Virus record (IMG/VR): IMGVR_UViG_3300000510_000016
Location: 1-64,000 of that record
Reading direction: 5' to 3' (one strand)
DNA length: 64,000 nt
Origin: a virus
Lineage: Duplodnaviria > Caudoviricetes
This document shows positions 4,733 to 27,056 of the stretch, one piece after another; within the stretch, counting starts at the first letter, position 1; every line of letters starts with the position of its first letter. A program made the translations under genes and the position numbers. Under the pieces are notes generated by a model, which was given only the letters and a program-made list of their open reading frames with translations, had not been told where the DNA came from and did no database searches.

Positions 4733-5161
4733 TTAAATTGAAGCTGTTAACCTATTACCATCTTGGTCTGTGAGGATAACGCCGTTTTCGTTTGTTAGGA
4801 TGTAATAAGTTAATATAGTTGGTTCATCAATAACCTTAACTCTGAACTTACAAGCATAGGAGTAATTGAATATTTCAGATTCAAAATAATCAATACTCTC
4901 TACCATAGGTTCTTTATTGATTTCATTTCTTATGATAATGTCTACAGAGCTTTTAGGTCTATTCCTACCAAACACTGTATTAAGGTAATCAATACCATAA
5001 TTAATGTTCCAGAATAAATCTCTGGGGTAGGTCTTTAACCTTAAGAACAATCTTTGCATTAGGTCTTCAGCAGGAGATTGTGTGATAGCTAAATCAACCA
5101 ACCCATCTCCACCTTCCTCTAACACAATGTCAAATGTTTGTTGGTCGAATTTAATATCCAT
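4733..5161 (-). CDS. Baseplate wedge subunit (gp25/gpW-like)
   Basis: QRLFLRLKTY..DLFWNINYGIDY motif; lies between spike and baseplate J. Confidence 0.75.
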   Translation of the reverse strand: MDIKFDQQTFDIVLEEGGDGLVDLAITQSPAEDLMQRLFLRLKTYPRDLFWNINYGIDYLNTVFGRNRPKSSVDIIIRNEINKEPMVESIDYFESEIFNYSYACKFRVKVIDEPTILTYYILTNENGVILTDQDGNRLTASI

Positions 5162-5171
5162 TTAATAATCT

Positions 5172-5873
5172 CTAAATGTTTGGTGGAGAAGTAGGAGAGC
5201 CTTGGTTACCTATATGAGTGTGTTTAAGCATAAACTCATTAACACTCTTACCCTGTATCTCAACATCGCCTTGTGTAGTTATAGTGGCATTATTAGCATT
5301 AACACTATCAGCTATCACCTCAACTACTTTAGACTCAACAACCACCTTTGTAGGTGACTTCAACGAGATATCCCCGTCAGTGTTGATAGAAATAATAGCC
5401 TCATTATCAGTATTCTTATTATGTACGATATTGAGGTCTTGATTATTGAAGTCGTTAGTATAGTTGTTAGGATTGAAAGCTGATTGCTGATAAGGAGTAA
5501 AACCTACGATAGCTACTACGTTTGATAAGTTTCCCCAACCATTACCGAAAGGGTCGTGCGCCTCTTTCTCGCCATTAACAAAACTAAGTATATCTACTGA
5601 TTGGAATAACAGGTCTACAGTATCACCTTGTTTAATAGGAAAAACTATTGATGAACTTTTTGTAGATGGCATAAGAACTTGAACATTACGAATAGGTGGG
5701 TACTCAATAGTCTCACCTGTCACAGAGTTCATGTTGTTTACGAGAGGCTTTACATCAATAAACCCATCAACTAAGTTGTCTGTATTGACAACAATAGCAG
5801 GGAAGGATATATTTGATTTATGATTATTCAACTTAATCATGTGTTTTATAATTGACTCTAAACTTCCTCTCAT
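5172..5873 (-). CDS. Baseplate central spike (gpV/gp138-like)
   Basis: OB-fold-like N-terminus (FPIKQGDTVDLLF) and C-terminal HTH metal-binding apex (KHTHIGNQGSPTSPP). Confidence 0.8.
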   Translation of the reverse strand: MRGSLESIIKHMIKLNNHKSNISFPAIVVNTDNLVDGFIDVKPLVNNMNSVTGETIEYPPIRNVQVLMPSTKSSSIVFPIKQGDTVDLLFQSVDILSFVNGEKEAHDPFGNGWGNLSNVVAIVGFTPYQQSAFNPNNYTNDFNNQDLNIVHNKNTDNEAIISINTDGDISLKSPTKVVVESKVVEVIADSVNANNATITTQGDVEIQGKSVNEFMLKHTHIGNQGSPTSPPNI

Positions 5874-5897
5874 AATCCCTCTTTTTACTTCGTAATA

Positions 5898-7619
5898 TTA
5901 TTCCATTAAAGGAGCTATTTCTCTATTTGTTGGTTGTGAGCTAACTTTATATCCTGATACACTACTATTATCTGTATCTTCACAATACAATGTCATTAGC
6001 CAATCACCTTTTTTATTATTACCTGTGAACTTAGCATTCCTAACCCTGTGAGCTAATAATTCTTTAGTATACTTGTCCTCAGTAAAGATAAGTGATTGAG
6101 GTTTGACAGACGGGTTAAGTAAGGCAACGATACGGTTATATCTTCTGTTAACTTCTACAGGAGTACGTCCATACAATTCTTCTTGGTTTTGCTCAAACAA
6201 CCCTTTCTTTTGTTCGCTTTCTTCTAAATCAGATGTGGGGCTATTGTCTTGTTGAGAACCATCTTTTCCGTAAACGCTTATATGTAAGTGTGGGGCTGTT
6301 GCTCCAGTAGATGGAAAATTATATTCATCTAAGACTGTAACTCTATACCCGTTTTGCTGAGCTGCCTCAAGGATACGCTTCTTCTGGTTCTGAGCACCTG
6401 CGTGAGCACTCTTGATTGTTAAATCAAAAGCTTGTCCACTTGCATGACTACTAGAGCTTCCTGCATGGTGGTAATCATTAAACCCAGTGAATCTAATTAA
6501 GTCACTCCCAAGAACATTTGAAACTATCTTGGAGAAGTCGGATGTATAGCCTCTAACTTGACCACCACCAGTAGCTTGTCCACCAACACCACCTTTGATT
6601 ACTAGACCTTCTAGAGTGGAGTTACTAACATAGCCGTCTCCAGAGTCGTTATAAGAGCTAACGATATTCTCTGAACCACTTTTCTTTTTCTTCTCTTCTC
6701 TAGGGTTCATTCTCTTATATAAAGACTCTGCTGTCTCCCTCTCATTCCTACCTAACTCTTGGTCTAAGAAAGCTGTTACTAATTGATACTCTGCTTGTTG
6801 GCTTATTAAGCCTGTATCTTTAGTTAGAATAAAACCTTGACTGTTACTCTCGTCATCTGTTAATGTGCTGTAGAATATATTCTTTCCTGCAACCGTTTCT
6901 GGGTCTGTTGTATCAATAGCAGGGTATCCAGTTTGAATTGCTTTTAAAACCCTCTTGATACCAATGTCAGTAAAGGAGAATGCAGCAGAGTCTTTACCAT
7001 CAGCTAAAATTCTACCAAAGCTTAAGCCATAGTAATCAGTGACACCATCAAGGACAGTGTTAACATTACCAATGTTGTAGCTTGTAGTTTTAACTGTAGA
7101 TACAAATTTTAATACGTCTTGAGCGTGTTCTTTAGGTACATTATCTAACACAAAAATCATTTGAGGAAAGCCAATAGCTGTTGCTAAGTTTTCTAGTAAG
7201 TCATACAGGGGTAGTGGAGTTAAGCTATCAGAAACAGCATATCCTGAAAAGAAGTGGGTAAGAAGGTTGGCACTACATTCAATAGTGGTAGCTGTAATGT
7301 TGTTAGAGACCTCTGTATAAACCCTAGAGATATGAGCAATGAATAATGTATCTATTTCTGCATATACATATCCACAATCAAGCCATATCTCCCCACCTTC
7401 TTCTTCAAGTAAAGCTATAGTCTCATCGGATAAGCCGTAGATTGTAACTTTACCAGAATCATCTTCTTGGGTTTGGTCTACTGTCTTAAAGTATTCAAAC
7501 TCTATTTCAAAATCATTACCAATCACTGTCTTAACTTCTTTCTTGAAGTTCTTAATAGTAACGCTACAATGTCTTAGGTATTGCTTCTGAACACGAGGAA
7601 CATCGTTACTCTCCGACAT
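5898..7619 (-). CDS. Baseplate hub protein with an internal peptidase M15-like domain
   Basis: Position between the Dit-like genes and the spike; hub-like ends (LLNPSVKP...GDW). Internal SSHASGQAFDL...APHLHIS zinc-peptidase motifs. Confidence 0.7.
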   Translation of the reverse strand: MSESNDVPRVQKQYLRHCSVTIKNFKKEVKTVIGNDFEIEFEYFKTVDQTQEDDSGKVTIYGLSDETIALLEEEGGEIWLDCGYVYAEIDTLFIAHISRVYTEVSNNITATTIECSANLLTHFFSGYAVSDSLTPLPLYDLLENLATAIGFPQMIFVLDNVPKEHAQDVLKFVSTVKTTSYNIGNVNTVLDGVTDYYGLSFGRILADGKDSAAFSFTDIGIKRVLKAIQTGYPAIDTTDPETVAGKNIFYSTLTDDESNSQGFILTKDTGLISQQAEYQLVTAFLDQELGRNERETAESLYKRMNPREEKKKKSGSENIVSSYNDSGDGYVSNSTLEGLVIKGGVGGQATGGGQVRGYTSDFSKIVSNVLGSDLIRFTGFNDYHHAGSSSSHASGQAFDLTIKSAHAGAQNQKKRILEAAQQNGYRVTVLDEYNFPSTGATAPHLHISVYGKDGSQQDNSPTSDLEESEQKKGLFEQNQEELYGRTPVEVNRRYNRIVALLNPSVKPQSLIFTEDKYTKELLAHRVRNAKFTGNNKKGDWLMTLYCEDTDNSSVSGYKVSSQPTNREIAPLME

Positions 7620-8007
7620 ATACCGTTCTCCAGTTAATCTTAAACTTCTCTTCTGTTGTTTGTAATCTTCCTAAGAAGTATAAGTCGAAATCTTTAGACC
7701 AGTTTAGATAATCATAATCATCAGGAACAATCATGTCTTTTGATTTAGGTTTTAATGTGACAGTAAAGCTAATACCTTTTCTATTAGCATTAAAGTTAAA
7801 CTCGCATATCTTTTTATTCTTAAGAAATGTTTGTGTTAAAAGAGGCTTGTTGCCTTGGTCAGTAATCATAATCCAACGCATTTTATTTCTGGTGTTATAA
7901 CCACAGATAAGATTTAATGGACGTTGAAGAATATCTATCTTAGACACATAATGAAGTTTGTCACTAACTGGTACGGTGATAAAGGAATCTAGGTCTGTTA
8001 TAATCAA
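7606..8007 (-). CDS. Virion baseplate protein, uncharacterised
   Basis: Overlaps neighbours on both sides within the tail operon. Confidence 0.55.
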   Translation of the reverse strand: MIITDLDSFITVPVSDKLHYVSKIDILQRPLNLICGYNTRNKMRWIMITDQGNKPLLTQTFLKNKKICEFNFNANRKGISFTVTLKPKSKDMIVPDDYDYLNWSKDFDLYFLGRLQTTEEKFKINWRTVYVGE

Positions 8008-8882
8008 TCTGTAACCCCATCAATAGTCATTAAGGCAGCAGGATTGCGCCCTTGAATAACACGGTAGTTCTCACCTGCCTTAACTATGGTGTGTGTTTTA
8101 CCTGTACGCCACACTGCTTCTGCTGCCCTTTCTTTAGCCTTTAAGTAGTTTTCATCATCATTGATACCCAACTTCTCTCGCATGATTTTTTCCATTTCAT
8201 CACGATTCCCCTTCTCAATAGCAGGCACACTATCATCAGGTAGCCCAGTAGTAGGGTCGATAAGACCTTCTTCTGTTTTACTCTTACCCCCACTATAAGG
8301 TTCAAAATTAGTGGGGGCTTCTCTTAATAAGGCTCTTTTCTCACCCTCAGCTAATTCGGTAATAGCTACATTAGCCATAACTATTTTCTGAAGTTTTATC
8401 TCTGCGTGAATAGCGCCTGTACCAGTATCAGGGTGAGAAAATGATAAAGATGAAATAACACAGTCTTCAATCTCTTTGAAGTAGCCTGATTTAAGCTCTT
8501 CAACTTTGGCGATATCGTTAGCGTTTTCAGAGTTAACAGATGACTCTATTAAAGTTACAACCTTTCTATCAGAGAATACCCGAATCATTTGTTCTCTAAC
8601 TTCAATATGATAGTTAAGGTTAGGTTCTCCGCCTGAACTAAATTCTTCCCCATCCCAAACAATCTCTCTATCTTTTTTGAAAAGAGAGTAACTAGACAGT
8701 ACGGCACTAATATTATAAGTAGGAGCTTCAATGTTAGTGTTATCTGAAATGTTAAAGCCATACTCAACAGTTTGAGAAGTGACAGTGGCATTCCAAGATT
8801 CATCCATTGACGTAATAGAATCAAAAGATATAATTGCATCTATCTTACCATTATCATCTTTTCTAACTATCGTGTATATCAT
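8004..8882 (-). CDS. Distal tail / tube-initiator (Dit-like) protein
   Basis: Immediately after the tape measure; FDSITS..ESWNATVTSQTVEYG..ISD pattern is typical at this position. Confidence 0.6.
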   Translation of the reverse strand: MIYTIVRKDDNGKIDAIISFDSITSMDESWNATVTSQTVEYGFNISDNTNIEAPTYNISAVLSSYSLFKKDREIVWDGEEFSSGGEPNLNYHIEVREQMIRVFSDRKVVTLIESSVNSENANDIAKVEELKSGYFKEIEDCVISSLSFSHPDTGTGAIHAEIKLQKIVMANVAITELAEGEKRALLREAPTNFEPYSGGKSKTEEGLIDPTTGLPDDSVPAIEKGNRDEMEKIMREKLGINDDENYLKAKERAAEAVWRTGKTHTIVKAGENYRVIQGRNPAALMTIDGVTD

Positions 8883-11625: not shown

Positions 11626-12300
11626 TTAATTACTATCTTGTGGAGGTAAGGGTTCTAAAGGTAATCCACCACTAACATCGAAATCATCTAAGCTATTAGA
11701 ATTGATATTTCTACTTGGTGTAATGATAGTACCTGTTTCTTCATTGATTGTTGATGTCTTATTACTTCCTGCATCTTGAGGTCGTGCACCATATTTACTG
11801 TGTATTTGGTTTTCATAATCTGTTGGTTGGTCTATAGAACGAACACCTGAGAACATAGGTTTAATACCAAACACCACTTCCCTATCACCTGCTTCTTGTT
11901 GCATACTTATTTCAGGTAAGCTTATAATCCAAGCTCTATATACACTAACAATCCTTTCATTCTCATGCACAGATAGATTAAACCAACCTCTACTCAATTG
12001 CTGCTTAAACGCTAAGTTTCTTAATACACTTAAACTTTTAGCTGTAGGGAGAAAGGTAACAGTTAATGTTCTTTGTTCTATTGAGTGATAGTATGTTGTA
12101 TAGTAGTAGTCAATACCTGTCTCTTGCCTTGTGATAACGTCAGCATTCAACGAAGATGATACAACGCCATCTAATGTTAATCCTGCAACAATAATAGCAT
12201 TCTTAGACGCATTGTATGTCTGTGTTTGTCTAACAGCGTATGGTTCTGATACGTTAAGAAGCTCTTTTGCCTTCTCTTTAATTTCCATTAATATACTCAA
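11626..12300 (-). CDS. Tail tube-fold paralogue (DUF3277-like)
   Basis: TYNASKNAIIVAGLTLDG...TLTVTFLPT aligns by eye with the tube protein. Confidence 0.6.
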   Translation of the reverse strand: MSILMEIKEKAKELLNVSEPYAVRQTQTYNASKNAIIVAGLTLDGVVSSSLNADVITRQETGIDYYYTTYYHSIEQRTLTVTFLPTAKSLSVLRNLAFKQQLSRGWFNLSVHENERIVSVYRAWIISLPEISMQQEAGDREVVFGIKPMFSGVRSIDQPTDYENQIHSKYGARPQDAGSNKTSTINEETGTIITPSRNINSNSLDDFDVSGGLPLEPLPPQDSN

Positions 12301-12318: not shown

Positions 12319-12894
12319 CTAGAATAACTCTTTAAGTTTTTGTTCTGCTTGATTAATACCATCTTCTATCATTGTTTCTACATTAGTCAAGTCAATACCT
12401 GCTAACTCTGATAGTTCAATCAATCTTATAGTAGCTCTTAGCGAGGCTGTTAGCCATGTTGTCTTATTAGTCCCTCTTACTTGGAAACTAGCTCCATGAC
12501 AAATGAAAGACCATTGCCTAGCTGTTGATTCACTAAGAAACTCTGTGTTTGGTTCGGTGTCAAAGAAACACTCAGTAGCTTGGAATTGAGTACCACCATA
12601 GCTAGTTTCTTCTGATACACTGATAGGTATCTTTAGGTTAGAACCAGAACGCTCGTGTAGCTTCATAACAGTGTGTAGGAAGTCGTTAGATTGACTAACT
12701 TGTTCTATATTGAACGTAACTCTATAACTGCCATAACTATCAACGAAAGCTGTTTGCGAGCCATCCTGAGCCTTTCTAAAGGTGTTAATGCTTTCTAACC
12801 TTTCTATTGTAACGATAGTGTCTTTAGATAGTCCAACAAGCTCTACCCCAAAGACACGACATTTAACTGCTGATGGAACGTAGGAGTAGAGCAT
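12319..12894 (-). CDS. Tail tube-fold paralogue (DUF3277-like)
   Basis: SYVPSAV...GLSKDTIVTIE...RVTFNIEQVSQSNDFL aligns with the tube protein. Confidence 0.65.
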   Translation of the reverse strand: MLYSYVPSAVKCRVFGVELVGLSKDTIVTIERLESINTFRKAQDGSQTAFVDSYGSYRVTFNIEQVSQSNDFLHTVMKLHERSGSNLKIPISVSEETSYGGTQFQATECFFDTEPNTEFLSESTARQWSFICHGASFQVRGTNKTTWLTASLRATIRLIELSELAGIDLTNVETMIEDGINQAEQKLKELF

Positions 12895-12942: not shown

Positions 12943-13473
12943 TTATACCGTCTTCCACTTATCATCAATCTCAACACCTAACATTTCAAGTGACGCTTGT
13001 AGGTCAGGGTCTAATCTACCACTACCACCTAAGTATTGGTCAGCATTGGTGAGGACGATAATCCAATCACGTACAGAGGTATCAGCACCAAACTCATAAG
13101 ACATTGGGCGCTTAACAAAACACTCAGCACTGTATGCAAATGTACGGCTTGATTTATCTGCAAATGTACAAGTGAAAATACCCTCTAATCCGCTAGGGTC
13201 TTTATCGTCAAATAAAGCAATAGCAGAAAGGTAATCATTACTTGCTGAGGTTTGGTCTAAGTGAACAGTCATACGTAAGGTATTATCTTTACTGTGTGTA
13301 CGTACTGTCTCACCATTATTCAATGTCTTCTCTGACCATACTGCCTCTGGATACTCAATACTTACTAGGCTATCTTTAGCAAGACCACCAACGATATGTG
13401 AAGTATTTGATTCAGGGTGTGTAATAGCAATGACGATTGATGATGGTTTGTAACTTGCTAATTGACTAGCCAT
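12943..13473 (-). CDS. Tail tube protein
   Basis: Directly after the sheath; SYKPSSI...GLAKDSLVSIE...TVHLDQTSASNDYL. Confidence 0.8.
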   Translation of the reverse strand: MASQLASYKPSSIVIAITHPESNTSHIVGGLAKDSLVSIEYPEAVWSEKTLNNGETVRTHSKDNTLRMTVHLDQTSASNDYLSAIALFDDKDPSGLEGIFTCTFADKSSRTFAYSAECFVKRPMSYEFGADTSVRDWIIVLTNADQYLGGSGRLDPDLQASLEMLGVEIDDKWKTV

Positions 13474-13522: not shown

Positions 13523-14569
13523 TTAGGTGTAAACCGTACCTTCGATTGCATCTACGAATAAGATAGCACCTGCAAGACGGGCACGGAATGTAATCTTACG
13601 AAGGTATCCGCTAGCACGTTCTTGTGAGGTAAGTTTATTAGCGTCAGGAACTTGAATACTGAAACCATCGTCATTAGTGAGTATGTTGTTGTTGACAGCT
13701 TCATTAAGAACACTTACAATCTCAGCACGGAATAGCTCGATACTAGAGTTGGTGTAGTTTAGACGGTCTTTGGTATATAAGACGTTCCATACTCGTTCTG
13801 ATAGACGTACTTCTAACCAGATAGCACCTAAGATAACATGAATCTTTTCACCCCCTAATGTATTAGCATTACCCTCAATAGATGGGTCTTGTCCTACTTT
13901 CGTATAGAAGTGAGCATTCTTAGATTTAAGAACAGACATCTCAGTACGGGTGAAGGCTTCAGGAACTAAGCTAGTAAGTGATTTATGAATCCAAGTGTTA
14001 CTTCCAATGATTGCACTAGCAAAACGTCCTACCCAAGCTGCTTCAGGAGCTACAACATCAGGGTCTTTAGTGTGCATACCAATAGACTTGACAAAACCCT
14101 TAGCTTGAATCTTAGAGAAGATATCGGTTTCAGTAGCTTGTAGTAGTGCATCAGCTTTGTTGTTAGAGAACACATAAACTGCTGTTTCTGCTTCAATGTA
14201 AGTAGCAATAGCTTCTTTATCAGTGTCATCTTCAGCATCAGTGATAAGGAAGAACCAGTTATTATTAGCTGATTGTAGTTTAGCAATCTCAGCAGGGTAG
14301 TCTACACCAACACCTTCTGTAATCTTACCAACTACTACACTACGTACTTGTGGATTCTGACTAAAGACTCGTTGAGCAGCTACATAGGCATAATCAGTGG
14401 TTAGGAAACCATCTGTAATCATATCAGTGGCAGAGGTGTATTCACGGTACATTTCACTACCGAAGTTAGCGTGAACTGATAGGATAGCGATTGTCTGTAA
14501 ATCACGAATAGTCTTACTTGATGTTTCTCGATTAATGATTACATTGACAATATCTTTAATTTCTAGCAT
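13523..14569 (-). CDS. Tail sheath protein (DUF3383-type), main copy
   Basis: IVNVIINRET, AAQRVFSQNP, PEAAWVG and WLEVRLSERV...ITFRARLAGAI motifs; strong SD. Confidence 0.85.
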   Translation of the reverse strand: MLEIKDIVNVIINRETSSKTIRDLQTIAILSVHANFGSEMYREYTSATDMITDGFLTTDYAYVAAQRVFSQNPQVRSVVVGKITEGVGVDYPAEIAKLQSANNNWFFLITDAEDDTDKEAIATYIEAETAVYVFSNNKADALLQATETDIFSKIQAKGFVKSIGMHTKDPDVVAPEAAWVGRFASAIIGSNTWIHKSLTSLVPEAFTRTEMSVLKSKNAHFYTKVGQDPSIEGNANTLGGEKIHVILGAIWLEVRLSERVWNVLYTKDRLNYTNSSIELFRAEIVSVLNEAVNNNILTNDDGFSIQVPDANKLTSQERASGYLRKITFRARLAGAILFVDAIEGTVYT

Positions 14570-14620
14570 ATATTTACCTTTTGATGGTATTGGTTGTGGA
14601 GGGTATTTCTTTATTACCTG

Positions 14621-15670
14621 TTAATATTTCAATGAACCATTAACTTCTACTTCTAGGATTGTGTGTGTGAGGTTAGCTGTGAACTTAACTTGCAGGTTGT
14701 TAGTATTTCTATCTAACTTAGTTTCACCTATTTTATACTGAGTGAATATGCCTTGTTCTACAGCTATATCTAAGATATACTTAATCTCGTTAACCACTAA
14801 GTCAATACCACCTTGAGTAGCATTAATCTTATTTTGAGTGTATAGTGTTTTCCACACTCTTTGACTAATAGCCCACTTAACCCAGTCAATAGATACTTGC
14901 TCATAGATTGGTAGGTTTTGATTAGTCTTTCCAGAACCTACAACAGCCTTGTCTTTGATTACAATAGAGCTTGTATTACTTAGAGCAGGAATATCTTTTT
15001 CAAAAACAATATCTGTCTTGGCTAGATACTTATAAAGCCACTGAACGCTACTAGGAAATTTATTTCCACATAAAGCAATCCAAGCTGCTTCAGGATAGGC
15101 AAGCCTAGTCATTTGTAATTGAGAAGCTGTTGCCTTGTCTAAGTCTATAACCTCATATCCTAGCTTATAAGCACTGTTTATATATAAGTTGTCTAAGGTG
15201 ATTTTGTTGTCTGTTACAGAATCAGTAGGTATCGTACTTTGATAATAATGAACAGTCTTAGTGTTTACTGATGAGCTAGTAGGTGATGAATAAAACAAGA
15301 GTTTATAAGGTTCAAATGCTATGTGATTAGCAAAGGTATTTATAATAGTCTCATCTTTACTATCAATGACAATGAAGTAGTAACTGTTGTTATCTGCTGC
15401 ATCAAAAGCTTGCTGATAGGTTTCGTTACTTCTCTTAGCTCTAATAGTAATAGATTGAATACCCTCTTGAGAGAATACCCCAACACAGAAGTTATAAGCT
15501 AAGCTAGTTCGGGAGTAATTATTATCTAGTAAATCTTTTAGTTTACTTACAACAATTTCTCTAGGGGCTTCATCGTTTTCAGTTATGAAACATAGGTTGT
15601 AGAAAGCTTCACGTTCTAAACCTAACATCTCAATCGAAATATCTACATTTACAGGTGTTAAGTTTAAAAT
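14621..15670 (-). CDS. Second tail sheath-like paralogue (probable ATT start at 15670; first ATG at 15628)
   Basis: Shares PEAAW, DW....SQRVW..LYT..KIN.T..GI.L...EI...L..AV and NN.YF motifs with the 13523-14569 protein. The frame is open up to the TAG at 15680-15682. Confidence 0.75.
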   Translation of the reverse strand: MLNLTPVNVDISIEMLGLEREAFYNLCFITENDEAPREIVVSKLKDLLDNNYSRTSLAYNFCVGVFSQEGIQSITIRAKRSNETYQQAFDAADNNSYYFIVIDSKDETIINTFANHIAFEPYKLLFYSSPTSSSVNTKTVHYYQSTIPTDSVTDNKITLDNLYINSAYKLGYEVIDLDKATASQLQMTRLAYPEAAWIALCGNKFPSSVQWLYKYLAKTDIVFEKDIPALSNTSSIVIKDKAVVGSGKTNQNLPIYEQVSIDWVKWAISQRVWKTLYTQNKINATQGGIDLVVNEIKYILDIAVEQGIFTQYKIGETKLDRNTNNLQVKFTANLTHTILEVEVNGSLKY

Positions 15671-15679
15671 GATATTCTC

Positions 15680-16771
15680 CTACATTATCTTTGCAACAGT
15701 GACTTCAATGTTATAAATACTAATCTCTCGTTCAAACGTCTTTAGCCTGATTGTCAAACCATTGCTTGATAGAGCTGTATCACCATAAATCATAGCATTG
15801 AAAATAACCTCTTGAATCTTACTGTCACCACGTAAGGTCTTGTCTTCACTAAATGGAGTGTCTGTTGTAGCTTTACTCATACTGAGGTTGATTGTACCTG
15901 CTTTTGCTGAGGCAATAACTTTAAATCTAACACGGACGTTGTAATACCCATTGCTATCTGTCAGTAAGTATTTCTGCAATACAGGGTCATAAAACTTAGT
16001 GATACCTGTAGGCAAGTTTTCTAGCTTGATAGTAGCGTTATTAGGTAATACTTGCTCTGTATTTATAGCTACATTCATAGGTGAGATGTCAGTATATTGA
16101 CCATCTTTATATGTTCCCCAACCTTGTTTCTTAGGTGGCAAGGACGATGTTACAGTAGAGGCATCAGTGTTAGTAACTAAGATAGACAAGTCTTCGTTAT
16201 AGCTAATGCTACTTATCTTATTAGCTGAGTCACCAGAAGCGCCTGTTTCTCCCTTAATACCTTGTATACCTTGTAGTCCACGGATGTTAGTAGCATTTAG
16301 GATATTAGCAACAATACCTGTTCCACTTAGATAACCTGTGGTTGTGGGTTTAGTACCTGTTCCGCCAATCCACTCAAATAAGTGCAATACAGAATCTTCA
16401 CCTCTAGCCACTATCCTAAAGTTAGGAGACCAACCATTACTGCCGTTAATCCCGACATCACCTTTAGCACCTTTTAATGAGGTAATCCATTGAGGCTGTG
16501 TTCCAACAAATCCGTTCTGAACAGCTACTTGGTAAGCACTTAAACCGTCATTACCATTTGCACCATTAATTCCATTAGTGCCGTTCTTGCCGTCATTACC
16601 TGCAACACCTTGTTCGCCTCTTTCACCTTTAACGTTTGTAGTTAGCCAAGATTGGAAAACAAGCTTAGTCATAGCTCTAGCTTTACCATCATCAACTATA
16701 ACAAACCTATCGTTGTCGGTAAAGTCTACTTCATTCATAACAGGTAGGTCGTTTAACTTTAACTCTGCCAT
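15680..16771 (-). CDS. Collagen-like (Gly-X-Y) structural protein, possible neck/whisker fibre
   Basis: GERGEQGVAGNDGKNGTNGINGANGNDG and GLQGIQGIKGETG repeats; GLSAYQVAVQNGFVGT motif. Confidence 0.7.
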   Translation of the reverse strand: MAELKLNDLPVMNEVDFTDNDRFVIVDDGKARAMTKLVFQSWLTTNVKGERGEQGVAGNDGKNGTNGINGANGNDGLSAYQVAVQNGFVGTQPQWITSLKGAKGDVGINGSNGWSPNFRIVARGEDSVLHLFEWIGGTGTKPTTTGYLSGTGIVANILNATNIRGLQGIQGIKGETGASGDSANKISSISYNEDLSILVTNTDASTVTSSLPPKKQGWGTYKDGQYTDISPMNVAINTEQVLPNNATIKLENLPTGITKFYDPVLQKYLLTDSNGYYNVRVRFKVIASAKAGTINLSMSKATTDTPFSEDKTLRGDSKIQEVIFNAMIYGDTALSSNGLTIRLKTFEREISIYNIEVTVAKIM

Positions 16772-16780
16772 ATCTATACC

Positions 16781-17344
16781 TTATTTTGCCTGTTTATCAA
16801 TCACGATATTACCTGAATCAACACCTTCTGTTGTACTGGTGCTACCTGTTATGTTAACTCTATCTACTGAGAATACTTTATAATCTTCTTCTACTTCAAC
16901 ACGTAAAGTTAAGTCGATAATAGCTCTTTTGTATGGAACACCACTAATGGGTTGGAACTGGTGTAGTATATCTGTTGCTGAAACTAATGATAGACCTTGG
17001 TTAGTAAAAGCCCAATCAATCAAGTCGCTATGAATCCCATTCTCAAAATGTCTAAACCATTCTTGTGCAGGGTCATCTTTCTCAGCATGTAGTGTTAAGC
17101 TAAGTGTATATTCCTTTACTTGAAAGATATGCTCTTTTATATTATCTTTATTGTGTATTATACTCTTATATGGTAAGCCAATCTTTCTGTGACTAACTAC
17201 ATTAAATAATAAGTAAGGTGCACGAGGTTCTGTTTGCTTAAGCGTTGCAATAACAAATGTAAGACCATCAGGTCTTGTAATTTTGTCGTAAATAGGGCAG
17301 TCTGTGTCTCTAAGGGCGTATATAACTAATTTCTCAATGTTCAT
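16781..17344 (-). CDS. Tail terminator / neck protein
   Basis: Position after the head-closure gene; RAIIDLTLRVE C-terminal motif. Confidence 0.6.
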   Translation of the reverse strand: MNIEKLVIYALRDTDCPIYDKITRPDGLTFVIATLKQTEPRAPYLLFNVVSHRKIGLPYKSIIHNKDNIKEHIFQVKEYTLSLTLHAEKDDPAQEWFRHFENGIHSDLIDWAFTNQGLSLVSATDILHQFQPISGVPYKRAIIDLTLRVEVEEDYKVFSVDRVNITGSTSTTEGVDSGNIVIDKQAK

Positions 17345-26981: not shown

Positions 26982-27056
26982 TGGGGTATCTGCTGAGGGT
27001 CGAACTCAGAATCGGCAAATTATGAATTTGTTGCTTTACCTTTAAGCTACAGATAC
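26982..27056 (-). tRNA. tRNA with CAT anticodon (elongator Met or Ile2), CCA encoded
   Basis: Folded by hand: acceptor GTATCTG/CAGATAC, D arm GCTT/AAGC, anticodon loop TTCATAA, T arm CTGAG-TTCGACC-CTCAG, C73, then CCA. Confidence 0.85.

Follow-up and report, generated by a model that had tools for sequence, protein, structure and literature searches.

The tail module of a Caudoviricetes virus (IMG/VR record IMGVR_UViG_3300000510_000016; a virus genome record of 87,525 bases, of which positions 1 to 64,000 make up the 64,000-nucleotide stretch analysed here, hereafter the window) encodes two full-length sheath-fold genes in tandem on the minus strand, with a diverged copy (sheath I) upstream of the main copy (sheath II). 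On the basis of homology, sheath II is most likely the bulk sheath subunit, and sheath I is most likely a specialised minority sheath ring or display platform; to its being a minority component that forms one or a few rings at one sheath end, we assign a probability of about one half. We propose that sheath I would enter the handshake lattice of sheath II as a working second subunit, that specialisation would have confined it to a single ring, or a small number of rings, at one sheath end, and that in many relatives it would additionally bear accessory surface modules. Solved phage tails have, to our knowledge, one sheath protein, with rare exceptions, and we know of structurally characterised differentiated sheaths from extracellular contractile injection systems (eCIS) only. 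A defined ring with binding modules would give a contractile tail a new site for recognising host or environment and would be a natural display scaffold; an ordinary mixed sheath would be a second independent case beside PaBG, for which Kurochkina and colleagues reportedly described a two-component tail sheath in 2018. The clade has phages of Acinetobacter baumannii under study for therapy and a harmless Psychrobacter phage from cheese rind and, because it includes cultured phages, cryo-EM and proteomics can address the sheath question directly.

All genes of the examined region lie on the minus strand, and the features used below are as follows.

4733..5161, minus strand: gp25-like baseplate protein, the conventional sheath-docking adaptor (phrog_120, baseplate wedge, 6.6e-15)
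11626..12300, minus strand: tube III, a tube-fold paralogue and positional counterpart of P7-1 tube-C (224 aa, TTG start; phrog_280, 1.3e-09)
12319..12894, minus strand: tube II, a tube-fold paralogue and positional counterpart of P7-1 tube-B (191 aa; phrog_280, 1.4e-20)
12943..13473, minus strand: tube I, the main tail tube protein (176 aa; phrog_280, 5.2e-24)
13523..14569, minus strand: sheath II, the main tail sheath protein (348 aa; phrog_205, 2e-71; DUF3383, 70.4 bits)
14621..15670, minus strand: sheath I (335 aa from ATG 15628, 349 aa from ATT 15670 or 350 aa from ATC 15673)
15629..15673, minus strand: N-arm codons of sheath I, fifteen in-frame codons before the ATG, with no ATG, GTG or TTG among them
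15677..15681, minus strand: AGGAG ribosome-binding site, spaced 6 nt from ATT 15670 and 3 nt from ATC 15673
15680..16771, minus strand: collagen-repeat fibre gene between terminator and sheath I (363 aa; Pfam Collagen, 5.3e-07; phrog_33244, tail fibre)
16781..17344, minus strand: tail (sheath) terminator (PF23961, 9.1e-14; phrog_7975)

The original prediction took the open reading frame upstream of the main sheath to be a full-length sheath paralogue, and this is borne out by sequence and fold. The two proteins share 25% identity over 283 columns (BLASTP, E 2e-13), and alignment of their family profiles (hhalign, 40 versus 35 sequences) gives a probability of 98.9% and an E value of 3.4e-17 over 314 columns that run from N-arm to C-arm; the motif pairs quoted in support of the prediction are found in both translations. 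Both match the PHROGs tail-sheath family phrog_205 (sheath II, 2e-71; sheath I, 3.6e-15), and both belong by sequence and fold to the DUF3383/phrog_205 sheath type, with sheath I, at 19.6 bits, under the Pfam DUF3383 cut-off of 34.9 bits. AlphaFold2 models of sheath I and sheath II have mean pLDDT values of 75.1 and 76.1, and the Foldseek comparison proposed with the prediction returned for each model, among the PDB matches listed, sheath proteins throughout (Bas63, Sf14, PhiTE, Pam3, pyocin, PVC and AFP), so that each has the sheath fold. The best match of both is 9mt4_Q of phage Bas63 (sheath I, E 2.8e-13, TM 0.66; sheath II, E 5.3e-21, TM 0.77), and sheath II reaches TM values of 0.77–0.83 to phage sheaths.

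The pair lies in the order terminator, fibre, sheath I, sheath II, tube, and portal, protease, major capsid and head–tail connector genes precede the tail genes. Between 11000 and 19200, the numbers of promoter-like sites (27, versus 29.8 ± 5.4 in shuffles) and terminator-like sites (2, versus 3.7 ± 2.2) are those of shuffled sequence, and neither kind of site lies between the sheath genes. The gp25-like protein scores 14.4 bits against Pfam Sheath_initiator, below the cut-off of 32.9. The N-terminal region of the fibre is conserved across relatives, tblastn matches in TaPaz and in loci L008 and L012 spanning residues 1–180/184 only. Docking of this neighbouring collagen-like fibre on sheath I was considered and dropped, because an orthologous fibre (36% identity, 180 aa) occupies the same position in the single-sheath phage vB_AciJM_313.

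The original prediction linked three downstream tube-fold genes with a possible heteropolymeric sheath or dedicated initiator/terminator ring. The genes are there, all three matching the tube-type family phrog_280/KPP10_Orf10, but they do not carry that meaning. Tube I, which matches P7-1 gp78 and the tube proteins solved for Sf14 and Bas63, is the first of the three, like gp77 of P7-1; the best tblastn matches of tube II are the second tube genes of KPP10 and vB_AciJM_313, and those of tube III, which has no match among PDB sequences, are the third tube genes of vB_AciJM_313 and KIL3. In the cryo-EM structure of the Pakpunavirus P7-1 (PDB 9ZD7, 9ZD8 and 9ZDK; PMC13338283), 204 copies of gp77 form the tube, and tube-B (gp78) and tube-C (gp79) are each a single hexameric baseplate ring. 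One tube plus two single baseplate rings thus explains the triplet, which is also present in the single-sheath phages KPP10, phiMK and vB_AciJM_313.

One sheath gene is the norm, as the original prediction had it: the main-sheath query found 797 places in 788 phage records, and an orthologue of the second copy is present in only 13 of 50,697, intact and at the same position in each. These 13 GenBank phages are Acinetobacter phages of the Saclayvirus type, Vibrio VH-8, Edwardsiella ET-ABTNL-9 and Psychrobacter D'Alembert, and their sheath I proteins are 42–60% identical to the window copy. Sheath I was also found in all ten IMG/VR loci, intact where the whole gene is covered except in two split loci, and its orthologues form at least 120 clusters at 90% identity. 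The survey of relatives that the prediction called for therefore finds the duplication conserved, not eroding. An earlier description of the duplication as standard for its clade was named with the prediction as something that would speak against it, and this is half the case. Sheath I is named as a tail sheath in 9 of the 13 records (and as XkdK-like in one), and in cultured TaPaz (MZ043613) the annotation reads "tail sheath protein I/II, tail tube protein I/II/III". In those parts of the literature on paired sheath proteins, TaPaz, Saclayvirus/B9/BS46/Phab24, D'Alembert and DUF285 sheaths that our search covered, the second sheath of the clade is not discussed, nor is it in the covered passages of the TaPaz and D'Alembert papers; the word 'sheath' is absent from the Saclayvirus P1 paper. 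The same search returned no virion proteome or structure for any phage of the sheath I/II clade, and the matches to 'two sheath proteins' for phiCD508 and FV3 were phrases of unrelated meaning. As an arrangement, the gene pair is thus already known, if only from annotation labels; what is new is the approximately 2.4-fold rate of sheath I, its kept arms and the modelled docking of its C-arm, its missing ATG in the window and, in relatives, its one-sided insertions and splits.

Both families keep the N- and C-terminal strand-exchange arms, which align between sheath I and sheath II, and the best-conserved block between the two is a pair of long inner-domain helices. Across 40 sheath I sequences, 53 columns are invariant, arm residues included (P7, E15, I339 and G346, with Y350 nearly so), placing the arms among the conserved parts of the protein. 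A predicted heterodimer of sheath II and sheath I scores 0.63, versus 0.00 for the best of three controls. This score passes a mark that 116 of 157 solved complexes also attain, compared with 2 of 215 mismatched pairs; both counts hold only roughly, because analysis-built alignments were used. At least 86% of its contacts are common to three runs, and partner pLDDT is at least 83. In the modelled interface, which is canonical, the sheath I C-arm (334–350) lies on strands 318–334 of sheath II together with the sheath II N-arm (4–15). As solved sheath–sheath complexes exist, what the pass shows is resemblance, and it may reflect memorised structures. Sheath I is, on this modelling, most likely able to join the same handshake lattice as sheath II.

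The model also bears on where in the lattice sheath I might sit. In the available part of the phi92 account, the arms are directed to the baseplate, and the last ring has its acceptor capped by the terminator; with this polarity, and with sheath I as the modelled arm donor, sheath I would be on the capsid side of sheath II. The argument hangs on one model's choice of orientation, and we lean weakly towards a capsid-proximal position at the terminator end. The signs that bear on confinement to a defined ring, or on alternation with the main subunit, are indirect ones from evolutionary rates, the start codon and the polarity of the model.

In the window, sheath I has its N-arm only when ATC or ATT serves as the start codon. 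The codons concerned (15629..15673) align with the conserved N-terminal strand-exchange arm of the orthologues, in which P7 and E15 are invariant across the 40 sequences, and a variant contig carries seven changes in this stretch, four at third, three at first and none at second codon positions. The AGGAG shares letters with the fibre gene's stop codon, and its spacing is like that of neighbouring genes. Contigs of four runs from four studies have the same letters in the start region, with no variant listed at 15648–15694, and a JGI metagenome scan for close relatives gave 87 pattern matches, none of them confirmed. D'Alembert, TaPaz, VH-8 and ET-ABTNL-9 start sheath I at an ordinary ATG behind a good ribosome site; the ATG before the N-arm has been lost in the window's lineage. 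Residue 16 is now Met in that lineage, so that, judging from the letters, a short form lacking the N-arm may be made alongside the long form or instead of it. Near-cognate start codons are weak initiators, and weak initiation at ATC or ATT would fit a low output of sheath I; the ordinary ATG in the four relatives means that this is not a clade-wide feature.

The evolutionary rate of sheath I is about 2.4 times that of sheath II, with a median ratio of patristic distances of 2.35 (range 1.52–3.76, 36 genome pairs) and tree lengths of 5.29 versus 2.23. Identity to the window across relatives' matched loci is 57–81% for sheath II, which ranks with the best-conserved module proteins, and 43–89% for tube I; it is 35–67% for sheath I, 35–68% for tube II, 35–61% for tube III and 30–59% for the terminator, so that the divergence of sheath I appears to resemble that of the presumed single-ring proteins tube II, tube III and terminator. 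The stem branch of sheath I is long (3.23 substitutions per site), and the tree gives the duplication and the split from vB_AciJM_313 as a three-way branching, the branch enclosing the three groups having 86/76 support. The duplication arose within the DUF3383 phage sheath family, independently of that in eCIS.

Among the relatives listed, only sheath I of the two paralogues appears to take large inserts or splits; the window's own copy is unsplit and without insert. Profile searches recovered sheath I orthologues of 890 and 637 aa with both halves around an insert (inserts extend to about 540 aa), as well as proteins made of the N-half plus a module. DUF285/BspA-like repeats were detected in inserts (9.5e-59, 6.6e-24, 4.9e-15 and 4.6e-134), and an Ig-like insert module matches Hoc-like decoration at 1.4e-4; Pfam found nothing in the modules of P0265, P0272, P0292 and P0266, the middle ORF of L010 or the repeat extension of L011. 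Four diverged ORFs of 161–195 aa are complete C-halves with a Met directly before the conserved AYPEAAW motif, and 2 of the 10 IMG/VR loci (L010 and L011) have a split sheath I in an intact context. The best 120 sheath II relatives have an almost constant length of 303–359 aa.

The same lattice compatibility would serve a sheath in which I and II co-polymerise along the whole tail, whether alternating like Pvc2 and Pvc3 or as in PaBG. We regard this as unlikely, if well precedented by the alternating Pvc2/Pvc3 layers of PlPVC1 and the two PaBG sheath proteins (38% identical), as far as the covered parts of those accounts go. A 1:1 partner should match the constraint on sheath II, and the rates are unequal (median ratio 2.35); the conservation of both sheath I arms and the heterodimer score (0.63, best control 0.00, with the reservations given above) do favour co-polymerisation, but only sheath I tolerates splits and inserts as long as about 540 aa. 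Relative to a reference of major capsid and decoration proteins, codon adaptation is 0.602 for sheath I, near the 0.624 of the bulk tube protein tube I and above tube II (0.506), tube III (0.504) and the terminator (0.537), and hence bears no mark of a rare protein; relatives' sheath I has a normal ATG and ribosome site, whereas the window's lineage has lost the ATG. The sister phage vB_AciJM_313, moreover, manages with a single sheath gene for its tail, next to the same three tube genes.

A role outside the lattice, as a collar or neck ornament, a non-virion assembly factor or a redundant duplicate being lost, seems to us improbable. The split forms are readable as decay, but their halves are complete, adjacent and conserved in at least four lineages, each at most 50% identical to the others; the long stem branch and the DUF3383 score of 19.6 bits (cut-off 34.9) fit such a protein, yet the 53 columns invariant in 40 sequences include arm residues, and the gene is intact at the same position in 13 of 13 phage records and present in 10 of 10 IMG/VR loci. 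The presence of sheath I in virions, as well as its sub-stoichiometry and end position, is something we infer, which gives a non-lattice role some room; against it, the handshake interface is confidently predicted.

Within the preferred reading of a minority sheath component, it is possible, and we suggest it tentatively, that a division of labour in the sheath like that of eCIS has arisen independently in ordinary-sized cultured myoviruses, with a dedicated sheath I ring as a docking or display platform. In relatives, sheath I bears BspA-like repeats or Ig-like adhesion modules or is encoded as two polypeptides, and a display ring would place binding modules on the contractile sheath itself.

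The closest solved sheath is that of P7-1, whose gp76 is matched by the sheath II profile at 1.3e-52 and whose three-tube-gene layout is the same; unlike the window, P7-1 has one sheath gene, encoding a three-domain protein of 428 aa, and the Pakpunavirus phiMK and KPP10 have no fibre gene between terminator and sheath. Nearer still, TaPaz, B9, BS46, phiAB441, VH-8, ET-ABTNL-9 and D'Alembert share the gene order of the window, followed by three tubes, chaperone and tape measure, with the GenBank relatives D'Alembert, TaPaz, VH-8 and ET-ABTNL-9 differing in the ATG start of sheath I; sister phage vB_AciJM_313 has the same three tube genes beside one sheath gene. In type VI secretion systems, the sheath protomer consists of two polypeptides, TssB and TssC. 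Some relatives' sheath I is likewise two adjacent ORFs, one with N-arm, outer domain and module and the other with inner domain and C-arm, and by analogy such a protomer would be assembled from two chains; the likeness drawn here is in the two-chain layout, and the window's sheath I is unsplit. PaBG, in the part of its account covered, has two sheath genes from a duplication, with 38% identity (PMC7412058), but belongs to an unrelated jumbo phage group, and the window copies are 25% identical, with unequal rates and one of them tolerant of inserts. The comparison with eCIS drawn in the original prediction proves apt. In the covered part of the PlPVC1 account (PMC12546770), Pvc4 is a one-ring sheath paralogue, layers of Pvc2 and Pvc3 alternate, and Pvc3 has an extra knob thought to dock fibres. 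The Pvc4 ring lies by the baseplate rather than by the capsid, a one-ring precedent that runs counter to a capsid-end position (PMC12546770, same part). Like eCIS (Pvc2/Pvc3/Pvc4, Afp2–4), the window encodes several sheath-fold beside several tube-fold paralogues, two and three, respectively, in one block, and both of its sheaths match Pvc and Afp sheaths by Foldseek; unlike these tail-only systems, it belongs to a complete phage, which has genes for portal, capsid and terminator.

The virus record is 87.5 kb long and is rated 96% complete; its first 64 kb, the window, contain a myovirus morphogenesis block of standard type, occupying the minus strand between about 23.5 and 0.3 kb and including two sheath genes in tandem, here sheath I (upstream) and sheath II:

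Within the 23.5–0.3 kb block, minus strand: portal, protease, decoration protein, major capsid protein and three connector proteins
16781–17344, minus strand: terminator (PF23961)
15680–16771, minus strand: collagen-repeat fibre
14621–15628 or to 15670, minus strand: sheath I, the upstream sheath-like gene
13523–14569, minus strand: sheath II, the main sheath
12943–13473, 12319–12894 and 11626–12300, minus strand: tube-fold genes I, II and III
Same block, minus strand: chaperone, tape measure and baseplate genes
4733–5161, minus strand: gp25-like baseplate protein

Window GC skew changes sign near 28, 46, 54 and 62 kb, and a single tRNA-Met gene (anticodon CAT; 26982–27056, minus strand) lies near the first of these four strand-composition switches.

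The upstream ORF is a sheath paralogue, as the original prediction had proposed. The two proteins are 25% identical across 283 columns (BLASTP, E = 2e-13), and profiles of 40 and 35 relatives can be aligned over their full length (probability 98.9%, E = 3.4e-17, 314 columns). Both match the phrog_205 ‘tail sheath’ family (sheath I, 3.6e-15; sheath II, 2e-71), with the Pfam DUF3383 cut-off of 34.9 bits passed only by sheath II (70.4; sheath I, 19.6). The sheath fold of the second protein is also present in AlphaFold2 models (mean pLDDT of 75.1 for sheath I and 76.1 for sheath II): the PDB matches that Foldseek listed for both are sheath proteins only, from phages, pyocin or diffocin, and eCIS, headed in each case by Bas63 9mt4_Q (E = 2.8e-13 and 5.3e-21, respectively).

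Three lines of evidence point to sheath II as the main sheath. The solved sheath of Pakpunavirus P7-1, gp76, matches the sheath II profile at 1.3e-52 versus only 2.7e-10 for that of sheath I; the sheath II family spans 788 phage records (Pakpunavirus, Felixounavirus and others); and sheath II, with tube I, is among the best-conserved proteins of the module. As the family occupies 797 places in total, almost every record holds one copy, which agrees with the earlier premise that myoviruses normally have one sheath gene.

Sheath I orthologues covering at least 80% of its length occur in 13 of 50,697 phage records, comprising ten from Acinetobacter (TaPaz, BS46, B9, Phab24, Ab3/5/7, phiAB441 and MD-2021a twice) and Vibrio VH-8, Edwardsiella ET-ABTNL-9 and Psychrobacter D'Alembert. 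Two weaker matches in that search were rejected as the single sheaths of other phages. The protein database holds at least 120 sheath I clusters at 90% identity, all with E < 1e-86. D'Alembert, TaPaz, VH-8 and ET-ABTNL-9 share the order terminator–fibre–sheath I–sheath II–tube I–III–chaperone–tape measure, which is followed in IMG/VR loci as far as the tape measure (L005, L008 and L011), the chaperone (L006) or tube II (L003). The gene is named tail sheath in 9 of the 13 records, as ‘tail sheath protein I’ in TaPaz and phiAB441, and ‘XkdK-like’ in D'Alembert; the TaPaz record annotates the full set (‘tail sheath protein I/II, tail tube protein I/II/III’). The duplication is thus already described for the clade in GenBank annotation, although our literature searches found no treatment of it, and the available portions of the TaPaz and D'Alembert papers do not discuss a second sheath. 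The second sheath gene is real, conserved and already annotated though unstudied, and the window adds a member to a known arrangement.

In the fibre between terminator and sheath I, the N-terminal region preceding the collagen repeats is conserved, and the C-terminal part is not shared by three of the relatives. An orthologue occupies the same place in the single-sheath Acinetobacter phage vB_AciJM_313 (L019:3404–4981), and the fibre is therefore independent of sheath I. In some relatives extra genes separate the two (L012:3270–5523; D'Alembert, L001:4764–6963, a tail protein with a depolymerase domain plus a small ORF), and the gap appears to be a spot that accepts receptor-binding cargo. In Pseudomonas phage KIL3 (L020), annotated endonuclease and homing endonuclease genes (5564–6280 and 7930–8280) lie between sheath and tube genes and amid the tube genes; its sheath match is in two pieces, the annotated CDS starting about 200 bases within the first.

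The three tube-fold genes, previously taken as a sign of an unusual sheath, do not bear that weight: KPP10, Pakpunavirus phiMK and vB_AciJM_313 combine three tube-type genes with one sheath gene, and their second and third tube genes are the best matches of tube II and tube III. Felix O1-like Sf17 carries a single sheath gene and a single tube-type gene. A trio of tube genes is ordinary in the wider phage group. In the available text of the P7-1 cryo-EM study, gp77 is the tube (204 copies), and gp78 and gp79 (tube-B and tube-C) form single hexameric rings extending it within the baseplate (PMC13338283). Both are shorter than the P7-1 main tube protein, in contrast to tube III of the window, which has a TTG start and a last 30–75 residues without match in relatives (tblastn ends at 146–195 of 224).

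Gene callers start sheath I at an internal ATG (15628; 335 aa). The 15 in-frame codons upstream encode the conserved N-terminal arm and contain no ATG, GTG or TTG; AGGAG (15681–15677) stands 6 nt before ATT 15670, the spacing of neighbouring genes (order AGGAG, ATC, ATT; 15668–15681, minus strand), and the internal ATG has no comparable ribosome site. The ATC/ATT region is fixed in contigs from four runs of four studies, with no listed variant at 15648–15694 (record 3, 15558–15694; records 20 and 30, 15582–15700; record 15, 15582–15760, with two differing letters). In a diverged variant contig ATC-ATT is retained and the arm codons show seven changes (four in third positions, three in first, none in second), which on our reading give three synonymous codons plus the substitutions V>I, D>N and I>V. 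An ATG stands at the arm start in close relatives 350 aa long, and orthologues that begin at the internal Met extend to about 70% identity. At residue 16 the ATG-bearing forms have Ser and the window has Met, so a shorter, arm-less form may also be made.

The strand-exchange arms of sheath I are conserved (P7, E15, I339 and G346 invariant, Y350 nearly so), align with those of sheath II in the profile–profile comparison and, like them, are disordered in the monomer models, as expected if they fold upon assembly. Sheath I thus looks able to enter a sheath lattice. The predicted sheath II–sheath I complex scored 0.63, against 0.00 for the best of three controls; among solved complexes 116 of 157 attain the score mark, as do 2 of 215 mismatched pairs, counts that are only rough here as our own alignments were used. 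At least 86% of contacts agree between runs (partner pLDDT of at least 83), placing the sheath I C-arm (334–350) on sheath II strands 318–334 beside the sheath II N-arm. Because sheath lattices have already been solved, the score expresses likeness, not proof. In phi92, as far as the available text describes it, each ring attaches by its arms to the ring or initiator beneath, and the terminator caps the acceptor of the last ring; with this polarity, the model gives a weak hint that sheath I would lie capsid-proximal to sheath II.

Sheath I appears to evolve in the manner of a single-ring part. Identity to the window in matching loci is 35–67% for sheath I, 35–68% for tube II, 35–61% for tube III, 30–59% for the terminator and 57–81% for sheath II, and the sheath I/II patristic distance ratio has a median of 2.35 (36 genome pairs). 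Inserts, judging by the proteins compared, are tolerated by sheath I only: sheath II lengths are 303–359 aa (best 120 relatives), and a sheath I profile search of 1.84 billion representatives (47 matches at E ≤ 1e-30) returned inserts of up to about 540 aa (P0241, P0242, P0254 and P0270). Full-length forms of 890 and 637 aa carry theirs near profile position 175. The inserts include DUF285/BspA-like repeats (E down to 4.6e-134) and an Ig-like module resembling Hoc-like decoration (1.4e-4); tandem repeats of about 30 aa also occur among them. Many N-half proteins have modules appended, and complete C-half ORFs are 161–195 aa long. The gene is split in IMG/VR loci L010 (3–2507) and L011 (4907–6396), in otherwise intact context, into adjacent ORFs for N-arm, outer domain and module, and for inner domain and C-arm; in L011 the second begins 3 nt past the first stop. 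Such a split protomer recalls TssB/TssC of the T6SS. The sheath I of the window is the minimal, insert-free form.

We consider it about an even bet (roughly 0.5) that sheath I is a minority subunit with a specialised role, making up one ring or a few at a sheath end and serving, in relatives, as a platform for surface modules. Model polarity and gene order would lean towards the terminator end; by analogy, the eCIS protein Pvc4, which in the available text forms a single ring surrounding the tube paralogue Pvc5 (PMC12546770), would lean towards the baseplate end. Evidence against a rare protein comes from codon adaptation (sheath I, 0.602; sheath II, 0.690; tube I, 0.624; tube II, tube III and terminator, 0.504–0.537; reference, major capsid and decoration proteins), from the normal ATG and ribosome site on sheath I in relatives, and from the intergenic sequence: no promoter-like or terminator-like site was found between the sheath genes, and the region is not enriched in either kind relative to shuffled sequence. 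A mixed sheath over the full tail length, as in Pvc2/Pvc3 or PaBG, is about half as probable to us; that sheath I lies outside the lattice, or is a decaying duplicate, seems improbable beside its conserved arms, its divergence and split forms notwithstanding. Cultured relatives make the position and cargo of sheath I directly testable.

The jumbo phage PaBG has two sheath proteins, 38% identical, that arose by duplication, according to the available text (PMC7412058). Maximum-likelihood analysis of 24 sheath sequences recovers the nine from sheath I as a clade (support 100/100) whose stem is very long (3.23 substitutions per site), and the eleven from sheath II as another (100/100; stem 0.75). 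These two clades and the single sheath of vB_AciJM_313 come out as a three-way branching, and the branch that encloses it has support of only 86/76. This placement puts the duplication within the DUF3383 phage sheath family, separate from those of PaBG and eCIS. PaBG is the known phage precedent for two sheath proteins, reportedly set out by Kurochkina et al. in 2018.
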